Source: Octopus vulgaris
Taxonomy: Eukaryota
NCBI GenBank assembly: GCA_951406725.2
Contig: OX597816.1
Coordinates: 98,890,001-98,954,000, forward strand
Length of the DNA: 64,000 bases
Direction of reading: 5' to 3'
The position numbers were made by a program, and so were the translations under genes. The notes beneath the pieces are model-generated. The model searched no databases, was not told the origin of the DNA, and worked only from the letters and a program-made list of their open reading frames with translations. Each line of letters starts with the position of its first letter. Within the stretch, counting starts at the first letter, position 1. Below, in pieces: positions 5,081 to 52,505 of the stretch.

Positions 5081-5567
5081 TCGTTACCAAACATTCCAAC
5101 CAGAATTTTCGCGTTGTGCCATCTAATCGTACATTTTAGTTGTTCGTTTATTCAAGTATATGATATCAGTTCTAAGCTGAAATACCTCCCTCCCACCTCA
5201 CGCAACTACGATTTTTCAGTTTTTGATTTTATTGTTTAAAAAAAAGACAAACACTAGCTCCTGTGGCGATTCGTTCACTGACATAATTTTAGTCAAAATT
5301 ATATTGCTTATCTTGATATTGGAACTGTATTGATTTATACTTTACTATTGCCGAGGTCATCATATCCTCTTGGGGGTGAAGTTGAAGTGTTTTTATTTGA
5401 TGCCTAATTATCGACATTCATAAAAAGACATCTTTTCCAATGTTGAAAGACTCTTTTGTTTAATGCATTCTTTGATTTTGGAGACAAATACTTTTTTCCA
5501 ATATTACATTTCTGCAGTGTTTGTGTCTGCATGATTTAAATTTATGTTCCTTTTTGGTTATTAACAT

Positions 5568-5945
5568 GGAGGTGCAATGGCCCAGTGGTTAGGGCAGCGA
5601 ACTTGCGGTCGTAGGATCGTGGTTTCGATTCTCAGACCGGGCGTTGTGTCTGTTTATTGAGCAAAAACACCTACAGCTGCAAGAGGCTTGGGCAGAGGGT
5701 GGGGGCGAACCCTGCTGTACTCTTTCACCACAACTTTCTCTCGCTCTTTCTTCCTGCTTTTGCTGTATCTGTATTTCAAATGGCCATCCTTGTCACATTC
5801 TGTGTCACACTGTATCTCCCCGAGAACTACGTAAAGGGTACACGTGTCTGTGGAGTACTCGGCCACTTGCACATTAATTTCACGAGCAGGCTGTTCCGTT
5901 GATCGGATCAGCTGGAACCTTGTTGTCGTAACGGACAGAGTGCCC
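5568..5945 (+). mobile_element. tRNA-derived SINE, family B
   Basis: tRNA-like head with A box TGGCCCAGTGG and B box GGTTTCGATTCT; body matches the copies at 18452 and 52146. Confidence 0.85.
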
Positions 5946-11356: not shown

Positions 11357-11452
11357 GGAGTAAACACATAAATGTGAAACAAGGTGGAAAAAAGAGTACT
11401 CAAATACCAGTGGTAGAGTAATATGCTTTATTTTAAGCAGCAGAAAATTCAA

Positions 11453-11502
11453 CAAAATCTGTTACTCTGAGTTTCTCGTTGCCGTTCATCAGACAGTTTT
11501 TG
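11453..11502 (-). ncRNA. Type I hammerhead ribozyme motif (left-arm copy)
   Basis: Reverse complement: CAAAAACUGU-CUGAUGA-ACGGCAACGA-GAAA-CUCAGAG-UA|ACAGAUUUUG. Confidence 0.8.
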
Positions 11503-12504
11503 CTAGAATGGAACATATATATTAATTCAATCTATACTCTTACAAACGCTACACCTTTAAAAAGAAATGGACTTGTTTGATTGGCCCTTTAGAAAAAACG
11601 GTCAATCTTCGAGCGATAAACAAAAAGGTCAAAAATATATGTATATATATATAAAAACTTATAAAAATTATAAAATCCGCGGAAAATACCGAGGAAAAAA
11701 CCTGTTGCCGTTAATGAAGACAGTACAAATTAATGCATAGAAATTAAACCTGTTATAAATACTGCAATACATATTTATATTAAAATCCACATATATATAT
11801 CAACATACACAAAAGGATGCGCGTAAACGCCATACATACATATACAGACGTATGAATATGAATCTAAATTATACACATAAAAGCATGTGTACATATATTC
11901 ACGCAAACCGTCTCGCACGCAAGCTAAAATTCATCTATGTAGCAATTCTCATATACTGAGCAAGGAGGGGGAACGAAAGAAAGGGAAAGAGAGAAAAAGG
12001 AACGGAGGAGGGGTGGAGAAAAACTTGTAGCGATGTTATTTGGCATCTATAGAGGCCAGTATACATACACAAGTTTGAATTGATACATATACATACCGTC
12101 GTGTATATGTGTGCTTAAGCACAAGCATACTTTCACTTACACATACACAGATACGCATGCTTACAAATACATATGCTTTGCTATACACAAACTTATATAA
12201 ACATTCTAAATTTGACAACATTGCTTTTTTATAAAAAAACATTGCTTTTAAAAAATGGGTGCATTAATAAAAATATATACGAAAGACCTATAAAATAAAA
12301 TATAACATCCTATTTTGGGTCATTTATAAATAATCAAGGTAATATAAATAATCAAGGTAATCTTATGCAATACAATAACATGAAAACAAAGTTTGTAGGT
12401 TTTTCCTAATATATATGTAGAAATAATAAGACTTTGCTATAGGTCCGTTGTAGCGCTCAAGAGTCAAAATCAAAATCAAAAAATCAAAATACAAAATATA
12501 TACT

Positions 12505-13383
12505 CTATCCATATGGTATATTTATATTCGACATTTTAAATTTAGCCTTGTGCCTACATAAGTTCATTAATTCACTTCTTTGATTCAAAGAATTATTGTC
12601 TTTGAATAATATGTGCATTTTTTCTAATAAGCAAAGCCTGCACTTGAAATTATATTTGTAAGCTCCATGCCTGTATGGTGCCGCCCTGTCCAGAATGCTC
12701 CATGTCACGTTGAAAGGTGGGGTTTCCTTTTCTTTTAGTTCCCAGACATATTTTGCTAGGCTGGTTTTCTTTCTATTCTCTGGGTATTTAAAAGAATTCT
12801 TATGAGAATAAAATCTTGTTTTAAATGAATTTTCTGAAGCCCCTGTGTATGTCTTGTATTCCGATGAGCCTTCCACTTGCACCTTGGCTCTATAAACTAC
12901 TCCTTTCACTAGACATTTCCCTTCTAACGGACAGGAGCTTTCGTTTTTGCAATTACATTTCTTAATGGGCTCGGCACCATGTCTAATCTCAATTAGCTTC
13001 CTATTATGTTGGCTAATGTAAGAGGCGAAATTTCTGCAACAAGAATAGCTAACCTTCAGGGTTCTTCTATTAAATATTCTGTAGAATTTATGACCCTGCC
13101 TAAAATGCTTAGAGACTAATCTCAAAAATTCCTTACCTATATTAGTCTTTACGGCCAAATTGAAAGCCGGGTTGAACCACAAAACTTTCCTAGTCCTAGT
13201 TCTTCGTGCAGCATTATTATTAGCATTAAGCTGGTTGAACTGGATCTTCTCCGAGAATCCACTATTCTTTAATGCGCTATCGTAATAAGGTGCAGCATTA
13301 TGGAATGCTGCCTCGTCCGAAGAAATTGAAGATATTCTTCTACCTACATTGCTGACTAAGTTAATAAGGATAACTATGAGCAT
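12505..13383 (-). CDS. PLE ORF C-terminal part (thumb end, CxC linker, GIY-YIG endonuclease), inverted copy, 292 aa
   Basis: Identical to the C-terminal ~289 aa of the + strand ORF; no stops. Confidence 0.85.
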   Translation of the reverse strand: MLIVILINLVSNVGRRISSISSDEAAFHNAAPYYDSALKNSGFSEKIQFNQLNANNNAARRTRTRKVLWFNPAFNLAVKTNIGKEFLRLVSKHFRQGHKFYRIFNRRTLKVSYSCCRNFASYISQHNRKLIEIRHGAEPIKKCNCKNESSCPLEGKCLVKGVVYRAKVQVEGSSEYKTYTGASENSFKTRFYSHKNSFKYPENRKKTSLAKYVWELKEKETPPFNVTWSILDRAAPYRHGAYKYNFKCRLCLLEKMHILFKDNNSLNQRSELMNLCRHKAKFKMSNINIPYG

Positions 13384-14464
13384 ACATAATTCAAACGGCC
13401 ATGAATCAGATAGACTTAGGAAGGACCTTATAGCTTTCTTTCAAAGGATGGGCTTACGGATTACGATAGATACTAACCTGAATAGTGTAGATTTTTTAGA
13501 CGTAAATTTTAATGTAAGATCGGATAGATTTAAACCTTTCCGTAAGCCCAATGAAAAGCTATCGTATATTAGCAAAGATTCGAACCATCCACCAGTTATC
13601 CTTATTAACTTAGTCAGCAATGTAGGTAGAAGAATATCTTCAATTTCTTCGGACGAGGCAGCATTCCATAATGCTGCACCTTATTACGATAGCGCATTAA
13701 AGAATAGTGGATTCTCGGAGAAGATCCAGTTCAACCAGCTTAATGCTAATAATAATGCTGCACGAAGAACTAGGACTAGGAAAGTTTTGTGGTTCAACCC
13801 GGCTTTCAATTTGGCCGTAAAGACTAATATAGGTAAGGAATTTTTGAGATTAGTCTCTAAGCATTTTAGGCAGGGTCATAAATTCTACAGAATATTTAAT
13901 AGAAGAACCCTGAAGGTTAGCTATTCTTGTTGCAGAAATTTCGCCTCTTACATTAGCCAACATAATAGGAAGCTAATTGAGATTAGACATGGTGCCGAGC
14001 CCATTAAGAAATGTAATTGCAAAAACGAAAGCTCCTGTCCGTTAGAAGGGAAATGTCTAGTGAAAGGAGTAGTTTATAGAGCCAAGGTGCAAGTGGAAGG
14101 CTCATCGGAATACAAGACATACACAGGGGCTTCAGAAAATTCATTTAAAACAAGATTTTATTCTCATAAGAATTCTTTTAAATACCCAGAGAATAGAAAG
14201 AAAACCAGCCTAGCAAAATATGTCTGGGAACTAAAAGAAAAGGAAACCCCACCTTTCAACGTGACATGGAGCATTCTGGACAGGGCGGCACCATACAGGC
14301 ATGGAGCTTACAAATATAATTTCAAGTGCAGGCTTTGCTTATTAGAAAAAATGCACATATTATTCAAAGACAATAATTCTTTGAATCAAAGAAGTGAATT
14401 AATGAACTTATGTAGGCACAAGGCTAAATTTAAAATGTCGAATATAAATATACCATATGGATAG
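13376..14464 (+). CDS. 5'-truncated PLE ORF (RT motifs 6-7 and thumb, CxCx5C linker, GIY-YIG endonuclease), 362 aa from the ATG
   Basis: VDFLDVNF...FRKP...SNHPP (PLE RT end), CNCKNESSCPLEGKC, GVVYRA...YTGASE..FKTRFYSH (GIY-YIG-like) and C-terminal CRLC...RSELMNLCRH. The catalytic YxDD motif is absent. Confidence 0.9.
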   Translation: MSIHNSNGHESDRLRKDLIAFFQRMGLRITIDTNLNSVDFLDVNFNVRSDRFKPFRKPNEKLSYISKDSNHPPVILINLVSNVGRRISSISSDEAAFHNAAPYYDSALKNSGFSEKIQFNQLNANNNAARRTRTRKVLWFNPAFNLAVKTNIGKEFLRLVSKHFRQGHKFYRIFNRRTLKVSYSCCRNFASYISQHNRKLIEIRHGAEPIKKCNCKNESSCPLEGKCLVKGVVYRAKVQVEGSSEYKTYTGASENSFKTRFYSHKNSFKYPENRKKTSLAKYVWELKEKETPPFNVTWSILDRAAPYRHGAYKYNFKCRLCLLEKMHILFKDNNSLNQRSELMNLCRHKAKFKMSNINIPYG

Positions 14465-15469
14465 AGTATATATTTTGTATTTTGATTTTTTGATTTTGAT
14501 TTTGACTCTTGAGCGCTACAACGGACCTATAGCAAAGTCTTATTATTTCTACATATATATTAGGAAAAACCTACAAACTTTGTTTTCATGTTATTGTATT
14601 GCATAAGATTACCTTGATTATTTATATTACCTTGATTATTTATAAATGACCCAAAATAGGATGTTATATTTTATTTTATAGGTCTTTCGTATATATTTTT
14701 ATTAATGCACCCATTTTTTAAAAGCAATGTTTTTTTATAAAAAAAGCAATGTTGTCAAATTTAGAATGTTTATATAAGTTTGTGTATAGCAAAGCATATG
14801 TATTTGTAAGCATGCGTATCTGTGTATGTGTAAGTGAAAGTATGCTTGTGCTTAAGCACACATATACACGACGGTATGTATATGTATCAATTCAAACTTG
14901 TGTATGTATACTGGCCTCTATAGATGCCAAATAACATCGCTACAAGTTTTTTCTCCACCCCTCCTCCGTTCCTTTTTCTCTCTTTCCCTTTCTTTCGTTC
15001 CCCCTCCTTGCTTCAGTATATGAGAATTGCTACATAGATGAATTTTAGCTTGCGTGCGAGACGGTTTGCGTGAATATATGTACACATGCTTTTATGTGTA
15101 TAATTTAGATTCATATTCATACGTCTGTATATGTATGTATGGCGTTTACGCGCATCCTTTTGTGTATGTTGATATATATATGTGGATTTTAATATAAATA
15201 TGTATTGCAGTATTTATAACAGGTTTAATTTCTATGCATTAATTTGTACTGTCTTCATTAACGGCAACAGGTTTTTTCCTCGGTATTTTCCGCGGATTTT
15301 ATAATTTTTATAAGTTTTTATATATATATACATATATTTTTGACCTTTTTGTTTATCGCTCGAAGATTGACCGTTTTTTCTAAAGGGCCAATCAAACAAG
15401 TCCATTTCTTTTTAAAGGTGTAGCGTTTGTAAGAGTATAGATTGAATTAATATATATGTTCCATTCTAG

Positions 15470-15519
15470 CAAAAACTGTCTGATGAACGGCAACGAGAAA
15501 CTCAGAGTAACAGATTTTG
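15470..15519 (+). ncRNA. Type I hammerhead ribozyme motif (right-arm copy)
   Basis: Core CTGATGA (15480-15486) and GAAA (15497-15500); stem II CG-GCAA-CG; stem III ACTC-A-GAGT; predicted cleavage after GUA (15509); stem I CAAAA-A-CTGT pairs with ACAG-A-TTTTG. Confidence 0.82.
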
Positions 15520-15545
15520 TTGAATTTTCTGCTGCTTAAAATAAA

Positions 15546-15585
<40 letters not shown>

Positions 15586-18451: not shown

Positions 18452-18609
18452 GCAATGGCCTAGTGGTTAGGGCAGCGGATTCGCGGTCGCAGGATCGCGG
18501 TTTCGATTCTCAGACCGGGCGTTGTGTGTGTTTATTGAGCGAAAACACCTAAAAGCTCTACGAGGCTCCGGCAGGGGGTGGTGATCCCTGCTGTACTCTT
18601 TCACCACAA
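18452..18609 (+). mobile_element. tRNA-derived SINE, family B (3'-truncated)
   Basis: GCAATGGCCTAGTGGTTAGGGCAGCGG...GGTTTCGATTCTCAGACCGGGCG matches the copy at 5568. Confidence 0.85.
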
Positions 18610-41874: not shown

Positions 41875-42507
41875 TGTTGTTGTTTATAGAAACGAAAGAA
41901 AACACTCAATAGGAAGTCAATAGAACGCATTTCTAATCGCAATATTTGAAACGTTTTTTTTTCCTCCATTTAATCCAGATTTATAGCACGACATAATGAA
42001 GTCATGAAATTTTCGTATTAATTTGTATTAAGACGCACATTAAATATACGCATGCAAGCAATACATAAATACCGATGTTGACATGAACATACACGTATAT
42101 GTGTATATATATGGATATTTGTGTATATATATGTGTGTGCATGTGTGTGTGTGTGTATAAAAGGTATTGCTATATCTAAGGCGACATAGTTGTGGTATAA
42201 TACACAGAGATAGCAGGGCAACGCTGTAGCAAGATGATGTGAGGGGGTATAATGCAAAGACAAGTAAGGCTAAATGAGGAGGAATGACCAGGTAGAAGAA
42301 AATAATACTTGAGAAGTAGCAATTGGCGATGGGGAAACCAAAATCTTGGAATGGAAGATGATAAAATTGAACAATGAGGATAAAATGCCAACACCAGCAG
42401 TGATAACCATGGAAATTCTGATGAAGGATTATAGGTCTTACTTAACTTATTAACACAAGAACTAGCAGCAAGCCTATATACACACTACACGCCACCAGTA
42501 GGTCCTC

Positions 42508-42566
<59 letters not shown>

Positions 42567-42751
42567 CGCTATCTAATTATGTTTATCTATCTAATTATGT
42601 CTGTCTATCTATCTACCAATCTCTCACAAAACCATTAGACATTTTAACATTTGTACTTTTGATAACAGGTCTATAGTTAAGAGATGAGGAATTATGTACA
42701 TTATTTACATTAAAATTCGACAGATATTTTTTGCTCATCTTGTTTATTGTT

Positions 42752-42797
42752 AACACAATGTTTCGGATGATATGCCCTCCAGCCTTCTTCAGGTGTC
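42752..42797 (-). ncRNA. Hammerhead ribozyme motif (slightly decayed) at the PLE 3' end
   Basis: Reverse complement GACAC-CUGAAGA-A-GGCUG-GAGGGCAUAU-CAUCC-GAAA-CA-UU|GUGUU; stem I GACAC/GUGUU; stem II GGCUG/CAUCC with one mismatch. Confidence 0.7.
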
Positions 42798-42810
42798 TTG
42801 AATATATCAA

Positions 42811-42850
<40 letters not shown>

Positions 42851-42851
<1 letters not shown>

Positions 42852-43106
42852 TATATTTGACTTTTGCTTTATGTTTGTACAAGTTGGCTCCAAGTCTCAC
42901 CCAGAGACCTCAAGAGACAACAGGTTAGAAGTTCACGTTGTTGTTATGCTAAGTGTGCCATATATTTGGGGTTTTTTGGTGTTGTACTAGTGAATGTCTA
43001 ATAAATATATTTTTTTTTAAATTGTTTGTTTTAAACCTTGAGATTACATATAGAGTATTTTGCGTAGGATATGAGCAGTTCCCATGAGCACTATCTTTTG
43101 AATTTC
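42851..43106 (-). mobile_element. R4/Dong-like LINE 3' end, same family as 41032-41541
   Basis: EIQKIVLMGTAHILRKILYM*; 3' UTR nearly identical to 41032-41283; (ATT)n on both sides. Confidence 0.88.
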
Positions 43107-43130
43107 GAATAATAATAATAATTATTATTA

Positions 43131-43160
<30 letters not shown>

Positions 43161-43162
<2 letters not shown>

Positions 43163-43223
43163 GGAATCGAACTCGGAATCTTGGGGTTAGTAGCCTGCGC
43201 TCTTAACCACTAAGTCATATGCC
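43161..43223 (-). promoter_or_regulatory. tRNA-like sequence with Pol III A and B boxes in the PLE 3' UTR
   Basis: Reverse complement GGCATA-TGACTTAGTGG-TTAAGAGCGCAGGCTACTAACCCCAAGATTCC-GAGTTCGATTCC; no complete acceptor stem. Confidence 0.75.
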
Positions 43224-44647
43224 TGTGGGCAATTATGGAGTGAATTTTAGGGCTTATAAATCTAATAATCTTCTATCCTTCCTTAATACCGGTTCCCATA
43301 TGCTGCTCATATCTACACTCGGTCTACTTAGAATATTGTTGTGTCCTAGCATATGTGCTGCTTCTTTTAGCTCGCGTATTTTCTAGTGGTGTTCTCTGTC
43401 TATTATTTTAACTTCATCCCACAGGGGGAGGTACTCTCCATTTTTCCATACATGATCAGCGATACCCGATTTGTCAATATTACCTCGTGTCACAGCTTTG
43501 CGATGTTCGTCTACCCTTATTTTAAGGGAGCGGCATGTTTCGTCTTCGAAGAACCTACCACAGTTGCATAGGATGGAGTACACTCAGTCTTTGGTCATAT
43601 TCTTTTCTATTGGTGGTTTTACTGGAAGGAGATATTTGTGAAGTGTTTTATTACTCATGAATACTCTCCTGATGTCACATGGGGCGCATATCTTTTGTAT
43701 CTTTTCGGAGAAGCCTTTCAGACAGACTGCAGATAGTTTATTGGCCTCATCCTCTCTCTTCTTCATAATTGGAGTGGGTAATATAATATTGGGGTAGTTG
43801 TTGCTTAACAGATCGTTATTGAGCTCATCATTTAGTAAAGGTCGGCTTGCGGTGTACGGATGTCCTGAATCCATACTTGGTGCGTGTTGTTAATACGTCC
43901 AGGAATGCTAGCTGATTGCCTTTTTCTTTTTCCATTGTGAACTGTATTGATGGTTTTATTGAGTTTACATGATCTAACAGCACTCGGATATCGTCCTGGT
44001 GAGGCCAGAGTACAAAGGTGTCTTCAACATATCGTAGCCATAGTGTTGGTTTTAGTGGTGTTGATACTAAAGTCAAATTCTCAAAGTATTCCATTGTATA
44101 TATTGGCTATTAACGGTGATAATGGCGAACCCATAGCTAAACCCTCCTCAAATCGATATATATCAGTTTCCATACTGAAGTAGGTAGTTTCTACACAGAA
44201 GGTCAACATTTCCATCAAGTTTCTAATTGGTATACTAGTGCGTTCTTTTGGATAGGTGTCTGTCAATAGTTTTTCTTTTGTCTCCGATAGTGCTTCGCCA
44301 GTTGGGGCTTTGGTGAACAGGTTTATCACATCTATACTCACCATCAGGCTGGTTTCAATGTGAGTATTCTTGATCAATTCTGTAGAGTGGGTGGAATTCT
44401 TCACGTACGATGTTGACTTTGTCAACATCATTTTTCTACATTTTCTATCCCTTTTTCTTCGTTGCTCAATTCTCTCATCTTTCATTCTCATCTTTTTGTT
44501 TCCACATCGCTAATACTTCTCAAATATCACTTCCTTCAAACTGTTCATTCTCCTTAACTTAGCGTTACTTCTTTTAGCATAGTACCCCCTCTCACTATCC
44601 TACTAATGTTTTACCCTCTTATCTCCCTCTTTCTCTCACTCTCTTTC

Positions 44648-44830
<183 letters not shown>

Positions 44831-45895
44831 GTTGAAATTTACTGAAAGACAGAGACAATTGTATAAAAACCAAGCAGGTGTATTATTTTGACGTTCGTAA
44901 AGGTCTGAAAGTCGTTTACGTTTTGAGCCGACGTTCTTCAATGGGAAGGAATGTGATGAAATAAACAGAGAGAGAATAAAAATCTTGTGGTTTTATCGGT
45001 CAATCATGGCGACTAATTGGGAAAAGATAGCTGGACAGGAGAGCTAGAAAGAATGAGAGATACTAAAGTACTGATGATACCAAAAAGGTGTGCGTGCATG
45101 TGTATGTGTAAGTGTGTAAGTGTGGGTAGGATTTGGTGACTTTGACGTGTGGATGTGTGCGTGTGTGCATTTGTAATGTGTGGGTGTGTCAGTGCTAGCG
45201 TGCACGGAGTGGTGTGGGCGTGTGATTTGGTACGGTGTGTTGTGGTGGTGTGTGATGTGGTGTTCTGTGGGGTGGTGTGCTGCGGGGGGCGGCGGGGGTT
45301 GATGTGAGGGTGCGGTGTGATGTAGGGTAAGGATGTGGGTGTGGGTGAGGATGTGAGTGGGGGTGAGGATGTGGGGGATGGAATGAGGTTGTGGGGTGAG
45401 GATATTGGGTGAAGGTGTAGGTGTGGGGGTAGGGTTGTAGTATGTGGGAGTGAGATGAGTAGGGTTGGGGTGGATGGAGGGGGTATCAATGAAGGGAAAA
45501 CATGGGTAGGAGAGATAAGAGGAAGAAGGTGTCATGGCAAGAAAGGAGAGGTAGGAAGAGAAGTAGTAGGTGTAAGATGAAGAGGGGAGAGTTGAGCCTA
45601 TGTGACGCAAAGGAGTGAAGAGAGAAGATTAATTCCTGTTCCCAGTGACGGCGGGAGTTCGGATAGCCCCTGTGCAAAGACAATCCAAACTCAGACAGGT
45701 GTTGTAATCAATAACCTGTAGAGCGAAAATGGCGCGAGACCGGAGTGTCATTACTGAGTCTAATATCTCGGAGGTGCTTCGCGAACCAAACGGCGTCCTG
45801 TCTTACCGATGTACGGAGAAGGGCAGAAAGAGCAGGAGAGGCAGTAAAGGACGTTGCTAAACGTGCTGGTAAATGAGTTAGTGTGATATAAGGGA
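44831..45895 (-). mobile_element. Neptune-like PLE 3' portion (GIY-YIG remnant, C/A-rich UTR, terminus)
   Basis: SFTSTFSNVLYCLSCSFCPSPYIGKTGRRL / FAKHLRDI...PVSRHF...EQELIFSLHSFASHRLN at 45585-45895. The terminus is homologous to 60580-60715 and 62895-63070 and abuts (TA)n. Confidence 0.8.
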
Positions 45896-45914: not shown

Positions 45915-46099
45915 AGTAAACACATAAATGTGAAACAAGGTGGAAAAAAGAGTACTCAAATACCAGTGGTAGAGTAATATGCTTTATTTTAAGCAGCAGA
46001 AAATTCAACAAAATCTGTTACTCTGAGTTTGGTCTGATGAACGGCAACGAGAAACTCAGAGTAACAGATTTTGTTGAATTTTCTGCTGCTTAAAATAAA

Positions 46100-46100
<1 letters not shown>
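45915..46100. mobile_element. Miniature inverted derivative of the 11355-15546 PLE family
   Basis: Tail 45915-45981 is identical to 11359-11425. 49-bp perfect inverted arms (45982-46030 and 46052-46100) enclose a 21-bp spacer holding CTGATGA. It ends at the same AAATAAAG|(TA)n junction. Confidence 0.92.
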
Positions 46101-46134
<34 letters not shown>

Positions 46135-46142
<8 letters not shown>

Positions 46143-52140: not shown

Positions 52141-52145
52141 GAGTG

Positions 52146-52505
52146 TTTAGGGCAGCGGACTCGCGGTCATAGGATCACGGTTTCGATTCCCAGACCGGGC
52201 GTTGTGAGTGTTTATTGAGCGAAAACACCTAAAGCTCCACGACGCTCCGGCAGGAGATGATGGTGATCCCTGCTGTACTCTTTCACCACAACTTTCTCTC
52301 ACTCTTACTTCCTGTTTCTGTTGTACTTGTATTTCAAAGGGCCGGCCTTGTCACTCTCTATGTCACGCTGAATATCCCCGAGAACTACGTTAAGGGTACA
52401 CGTGTCTGTGGAGTGCTCAGCCACTTACACGTTAATTTCACGAGCAGGCTGTTCCGTTGATTCGGATCAACCGGAACCCTCGTCCTCGTAACCGATGGAG
52501 TGCTT
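52146..52505 (+). mobile_element. tRNA-derived SINE, family B
   Basis: TTAGGGCAGCGGACTCGCGGTC...GGTTTCGATTCCCAGACCGGGCG; body colinear with 5568-5945. Confidence 0.88.

Follow-up and report, generated by a model that had tools for sequence, protein, structure and literature searches.

Does a PLE of Octopus vulgaris carry a Pol III promoter in its 3′ end, and does this promoter belong to the element? The question is raised by a locus in the 64-kb stretch of DNA analysed here (the window), where an earlier note had named a PLE stop codon near 43254, a tRNA-like A/B-box module, a split (AAT)n tract and a hammerhead at 42797-42752. All of these parts are present, on the minus strand, and in the window copy they follow each other in the order ORF stop, fold-back, tRNA-like head, (AAT)n, minimal hammerhead and open frame. 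The head lies 30 nt from the ORF stop, and 15 nt separate the hammerhead from the tail of a LINE inserted into the (AAT)n tract. The window copy is dead.

The coding part of the element is decayed and 5′-truncated near 44430. The C-terminal part of the reverse transcriptase (RT; 43834..44428, minus strand) is frameshifted and matches P0011, P0017 and P0030 at 56-77% in tblastn. It is continued by a linker and, at the C terminus, a GIY-YIG endonuclease with a CCHH motif, assigned by sequence comparison (43254..43889), which carry two internal stops and one deletion and end at the stop codon TAA (43256-43254). Compared by tblastn with intact proteins of 730-806 aa, the pieces of frame reach 53-77%. 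Two of four database hits carry names; these nearest named proteins are gene models of Octopus sinensis (65%) and O. vulgaris (77%). The RVT_1 domain is weak in the window piece (E 0.006) and scores between E 1e-8 and 1e-11 in all three intact relatives. RT and C-terminal GIY-YIG endonuclease thus follow each other in a single ORF, as in EN+ PLEs. The residues C108, C110, H129 and H146 of the endonuclease are invariant in 6/6 sequences where aligned, and a CX2-5CxxC finger is absent from the linker. The Penelope/Poseidon clade is defined, in the available text of PMC8557442, by a CCHH motif in the endonuclease and a linker without Zn finger. Because the CCHH motif is invariant and the linker has no such finger, the sequence points to a member of the Penelope/Poseidon clade by these definitions. 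A protein-led locus search recovered one distant PLE locus (L001) from 99 candidate stretches, and further searches of this type gave no locus from 65, 48 and 12 candidates. Behind the endonuclease of L001, two tandem hammerhead cores lie 80 nt apart (5375-5480) and A/B boxes are absent.

A 147-nt repeat of 75% identity flanks the PLE copy in inverted orientation (44594-44452 and 42238-42384). On the minus strand, 45900-44830 holds a further PLE-like endonuclease remnant, hit weakly by tblastn at 45858-45787, and behind it, near 44940, a motif that resembles a hammerhead; three PLE pieces are gathered here within 4 kb. A second, very young PLE family is found at 11359-15584 and 45915-46138. 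The frame of this second family sits in a 1.96-kb inverted repeat of 99.8% identity. Its 391-aa frame (13289-14464), with a cysteine-rich linker before the C-terminal GIY-YIG, is one we take to be Neptune-like. Hammerhead cores are located at 11492, 15480 and 46034, in a UTR that is rich in T runs and devoid of A/B boxes.

The tRNA-like head occupies 43163..43224 of the minus strand, 43224 corresponding to tRNA position 1. A D arm, an anticodon-like loop (ACT at 43191-43189), a variable loop and a T loop can be recognised in the sequence. The A box (43217-43207) deviates from the pattern at 43215 alone, a position that matches the consensus in the family, and the B box (43172-43163) matches the pattern. 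The head resembles, we presume, tRNA-Arg. It is preceded by a fold-back (43225..43243), an imperfect inverted copy of its first ~18 nt, which forms a hairpin in both the MFE and the centroid structure (z -1.2, which alone is not significant). ARAGORN reports 0 tRNAs at the locus, Rfam finds neither tRNA nor hammerhead there, and in free folding no part of the locus beats shuffles. The motifs are therefore decayed or minimal, and cloverleaf scoring with tRNA models, which failed in ARAGORN, Rfam and folding alike, speaks against a functional tRNA gene. The head does agree with the SINEBase definition of tRNA-derived SINEs (PMC3531059, available part) in its tRNA origin and in the A and B boxes that it contains. 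Family reads carry a 13-nt piece between the B box and the (AAT)n that is missing from the window copy. Positions 43225-43224 read CA in the window copy and TG in the loose ends described below, which suggests an ancestral CG and therefore a G at tRNA position 1. The window also contains three copies of another tRNA-headed SINE on the plus strand (5574-5943, 18452-18609 and 52142-52503), 85-90% alike, whose head is colinear with the PLE head and 62% alike.

Behind the head lies (AAT)14 (43162-43121), a simple repeat that is internal in the window copy. It is separated from the hammerhead by the insertion of an (AAT)-tailed LINE, which we take to be of the Dong/R4 type. The insertion comprises the last LINE codons and the 3′ UTR (43106-42851), followed by its own tail, (AAT)12.7 (42850-42813). 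Indels aside, it is near-identical to another copy, at 41283-41032, which is continued by a longer remnant of a reading frame. From its family majority, the PLE copy deviates at no fewer than about 40 of 750 places (40 rows listed of 157). Since the two LINE copies are near-identical and the PLE copy is diverged from its family, the LINE is the younger insertion. A chain of LINE 3′ fragments on the minus strand (41540-41032, 40840-40670 and 40440-39600), each between (AAT)n runs, suggests repeated insertion into AAT microsatellites. At two places the (AAT)n switches to its own reverse complement: at 43121-43108, where a short inverted (TAT) run marks the 5′ junction of the LINE insert, and at 38246-38217.

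The minimal type I hammerhead (42797-42752) has the layout of the minimal hammerheads described for PLE pseudo-LTRs in the available part of PMC4209133. Its CUGANGA / GAAA / UH core is complete, with CUGANGA at 42792-42786 and GAAA at 42764-42761, then two bases, U and U, and the cut is predicted after 42757. Helix I has 5 bp. Helix II contains one C-U mismatch and is preceded by an unpaired A. A palindromic helix III is absent from the window copy (ACAU), likely as a result of CpG decay, with CA in place of CG. From these features the motif is a minimal-type hammerhead and a candidate ribozyme. Two patterns were drawn up after the motifs had been noticed, a strict one for the A and B boxes and one for hammerheads with a structure check; each matches once in the 64 kb, at this locus. 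Sixty block-wise dinucleotide shuffles gave, over both strands of the whole window, means of 0.15 for A+B pairs and 0.10 for hammerheads. No second copy of the head or of this hammerhead occurs in the window, which holds a single unit, and the exact DNA patterns of the two had 0 matches in the metagenome, viral and prokaryote collections.

One frame, picked after the fact from three, is open through and behind the hammerhead from 42798 to 42613 (61 codons), a length reached in 0.36% of 20000 shuffles. Its peptide contains a short stretch that weakly resembles the N-terminus of P0030, immediately before the start motif conserved among the relatives; 3.3% of 4122 background peptides score as high. 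When eight N-termini were compared, two scored above 95% of the background; P0030 is well placed and P0153 misfits in register. A protein search with the peptide returned nothing among 19 candidates. The stretch 42670..42798 thus likely comprises the first PLE ORF codons and the 3′ end of the pseudo-LTR. In the Anolis PLE (PAc), the ORF starts inside the hammerhead and the RT starts 111-118 nt into the ORF, according to the available sections of PMC11167929. Because the open frame through and behind the hammerhead matches this layout, 43224-42670 is most likely a pseudo-LTR, with the head sitting where the promoter would be expected. The earlier proposal that the PLE 3′ UTR doubles as an upstream pseudo-LTR thereby gains support from an open frame; the layout fits that of a downstream copy in a tandem, although the window copy itself is 5′-truncated and no tandem was seen.

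Sequencing runs were used to determine whether the head is a feature of the family. Among 24 runs listed, 20, from 14 studies, contain part of 43150-43700, none of them half of its words. Four of the 24, from three organisms (A, B and C), were mapped to 43138-43887 (750 bases) at 80% likeness, yielding 9890, 9931 and 9192 contigs for A, B and C respectively and 4509 RNA reads for C. The family is high-copy, with thousands of pieces, the summed contig depth being no copy number. Depth in the bin holding the junction between ORF end and head, relative to the next bin on the ORF side, is 0.73, 0.82 and 0.78 in the DNA runs and 1.66 in the RNA run. Among 24 mapped pieces listed of 29213, one contig (X4 record 9) bridges 43176-43407 with 40 other letters; it is another copy in which the junction is alike. 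In the 24 loose-end rows listed of 1442, the ORF side never breaks off at this point. Position 43215, where the A box of the window copy has its mismatch, reads the consensus base in 96-98% of the depth in all four runs. Family depth is thus continuous across the junction, at which the earlier note had proposed to compare copies, and other members carry the head at the same place, so that its suggested refutation, family members without the tRNA-like segment, fails. The head is an integral part of the 3′ end of this PLE family. The mapping covered 43138-43887, and the link between head and hammerhead is that of the window copy alone.

The head also exists apart from the ORF. Depth in the head bin is 2.5, 2.0 and 2.0 times that of the ORF-side bin in the DNA runs and 2.4 times in the RNA run. 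In each DNA run the largest loose ends, among the 24 rows listed of 1442, lie upstream of the head, at 43212 (102, 91 and 73 contigs), 43223 (92 and 83) and 43231 (68). Their letters have a median length of 46-71 and an agreement of 0.39-0.45 among the rows listed. Loose ends within the ORF reach an agreement of 0.72-0.93 in all but one of those listed and reflect family indels. By eye, the rows at 43212 complete the head and then scatter, and those at 43223 and 43231 open with ~6-17 head letters inverted. The fold-back of the window copy (43243-43225) is a remnant of the one in these loose ends, as the inverted letters are the same. One RNA row (144 reads) joins the head start to an inverted copy beginning at the B box, which runs for 13 further nt and then into the start of an AAT run. 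Inverted 5′-truncated partners are typical of PLE insertions (PMC8557442, available text). Solo copies starting at or just before tRNA position 1 therefore exist, often with a fold-back. Together with the depth step, the loose ends correspond to the many dispersed short copies starting at the head that SINEBase describes for SINEs (PMC3531059). Some loose ends may be clipped ORF-linked copies, since indels are under-reported. Of the solo tRNA plus hammerhead copies that the earlier note had proposed to count, solo copies beginning at the head were thus recovered.

The transcript data are compatible with several readings. In the RNA run, which does not resolve the strand of origin, the two strands are covered to nearly the same depth. 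In this one run of organism C, neither an RNA 5′ start at 43223 nor a pile-up of starts or ends was seen, and two large RNA rows, one of 423 reads (agreement 0.85) and one of 294 (agreement 0.99), have the look of single loci. The RNA pattern is as read-through would give and speaks neither for nor against Pol III. Runs of four T number 0 in the 1266-nt sense strand against 1.9-2.8 expected (P 0.055-0.16, not significant), and 7 in the other PLE frame of the window; a single T4 sits at 42715-42712, within the presumed start of the ORF. This scarcity is suggestive only.

Our reading of the locus, to which we give slightly better than even chances, is that a captured type 2 Pol III promoter became fixed in the 3′ end of the PLE and sets the RNA start of the pseudo-LTR. 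With TFIIIC and Pol III, RNA synthesis would begin at tRNA position 1. Behind the hammerhead, the PLE protein would then bind the ORF start and prime there, as it does in vitro for the Anolis PLE, where the main substrate is uncleaved RNA and the endonuclease prefers ATT (PMC11167929, available sections). By copying uncleaved RNA to its 5′ end, the RT would leave solo pseudo-LTRs that start sharply and bear a snap-back, which amounts to a SINE mobilised by a PLE. Where copies stand in tandem, this promoter would face the next ORF and may drive its coding RNA. The (AAT)n would supply an ATT target from which tandems could arise, and cleavage by the hammerhead would need a dimer or the help of protein. 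The family-wide junction, the excess of starts at the head, the inverted partner, the intact A box of the family, the scarcity of T4 runs and the PAc-like layout support this reading, as does the absence of A/B boxes from the other window PLE 3′ UTR and from L001, both of which have hammerhead cores. It is weakened by the weak ORF-start match, the T4 at 42715-42712, the read-through-like RNA and the LINE-like nature of the characterised Penelope promoter (PMC2377424, available part). A bolder version, which we regard as rather doubtful, would have an autonomous coding retroelement run by Pol III, the head of its upstream pseudo-LTR driving a coding RNA poor in T runs, its leader trimmed by the hammerhead and its pseudo-LTR spreading as a PLE-mobilised SINE. 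Such a scheme would be a Pol III counterpart of the Pol I and HDV-ribozyme scheme of R2.

The same head could have come to the family as a passenger, if the tRNA head of a host SINE was inserted a single time into the 3′ UTR of a master PLE transcribed from a Pol II promoter, was then copied with it, and the solo copies were a separate, LINE-driven SINE with a different body. In O. vulgaris, 11.6% of the genome consists of SINEs (PMC13282606, available text), the other tRNA-headed SINE of the window has a colinear head, an origin by SINE insertion into an LTR has been proposed for TRIMp3 (PMC10886601), and a LINE-like Penelope promoter would suit such a history. In addition, the mapping of the solo-head family ends at 43138, short of the (AAT)n-hammerhead body. 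However, the solo starts bear fold-backs and an inverted truncated partner, which are PLE-type marks, the B box leads over 13 nt directly to an AAT run without a SINE body (in one RNA row), and the A box is intact in the family majority. We therefore consider a passenger head possible, if doubtful.

A quite improbable explanation is that the RNA 5′ end is set by RNase P-type cleavage of a Pol II precursor, or by arrest or recombination of the RT at the fold-back hairpin. Either process would equally yield starts at position 1; a hairpin does cap the head, and in family reads the T arm is still followed by a piece that resembles an acceptor. Against processing, neither ARAGORN, Rfam nor folding gives a cloverleaf in the window copy, and the T and acceptor stems pair poorly, by eye, in a head that has kept both promoter boxes; a stalled RT, for its part, should stop inside the head and not at its first base. 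That the locus owes its appearance to a one-off SINE insertion or to chance motifs is hardly credible. It is true that curated models pass neither motif, but junction depth is continuous in four runs from three organisms and a diverged contig bridges the junction, so that a one-off insertion is ruled out family-wide, and the shuffles leave little room for chance.

A promoter captured by the pseudo-LTR would bear on PLE transcription and on the role of the hammerhead, as it would place a sharp start site beside the ribozyme. If true, the range of Pol III terminal repeats would grow from non-autonomous LTR elements to include a coding PLE, and a SINE would have a named partner other than a LINE. 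Repeats that combine promoter and hammerhead, such as SMalpha, could arise by this route, and some of the many SINEs of octopus genomes that are unclassified may find their explanation here. The parts are known singly (pLTR-derived non-autonomous elements, TRIMp3 and SMalpha), and no paper in the literature searched joins them on a coding PLE. Ohshima and Okada are said to have described, in 1994, the octopus tRNA-derived SINEs OK, OR1 and OR2. The tRNA-derived head is shared with these SINEs, as compared by description only, and the solo unit may be OK or OR1 under another name; OR2 is a CORE SINE (PMC4758252, available text). The earlier note knew of no such promoter in a PLE, and the literature searched, including the available parts of PMC6962438 and PMC8967140, agrees in holding no PLE with a tRNA-derived or Pol III promoter; sequences in Repbase, Dfam and SINEBase lay outside this search, and the solo unit may already be named there.

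As far as the available texts go, the element resembles other Penelope/Poseidon PLEs (PAc of Anolis, Cercyon of Schistosoma and Penelope of D. virilis; PMC4209133, PMC11167929) in the order of RT and GIY-YIG with CCHH, in its linker without Zn finger, in the minimal hammerhead behind the stop and the frame open through it, and in its 5′ truncation and inverted partners. It differs from them in the tRNA-derived A/B-box head and (AAT)n where a promoter is expected; 'tRNA' and 'Pol III' occur 0 times in the available text of PMC4209133, and 'tRNA' 0 times in that of PMC11167929. The head and hammerhead also recall the non-autonomous PLE-end offspring with hammerheads, namely the animal non-LTR retrozymes (bioRxiv 10.64898/2026.07.22.740005; PMC7229834; PMC7761336) and non-autonomous Chlamys such as MRC1 (PMC8557442). 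Retrozymes are defined by circular RNA and by tandem units, each with a type I hammerhead, and such units are not seen here; they are described as without promoters in the available part of PMC7761336, and tRNA and Pol III are unmentioned in that of bioRxiv 10.64898/2026.07.22.740005. A Pol III promoter from a small-RNA gene in the terminal repeat of a retroelement is the hallmark shared with TRIMp3 (Cassandra, Helenus and Ajax; PMC10886601). TRIMp3 are non-autonomous LTR elements, whose author, in the text available, thinks an autonomous partner unlikely to share their promoter, whereas the head is here attached to the coding PLE itself. Finally, SMalpha and Sjalpha of Schistosoma combine a Pol III promoter and a hammerhead in a short repeat (reviewed in PMC6765202). 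These are tandem repeats with a canonical active hammerhead, and their coding partner is unnamed in the available part of that review, whereas the octopus unit combines a minimal hammerhead with a physical link to the ORF of a PLE.
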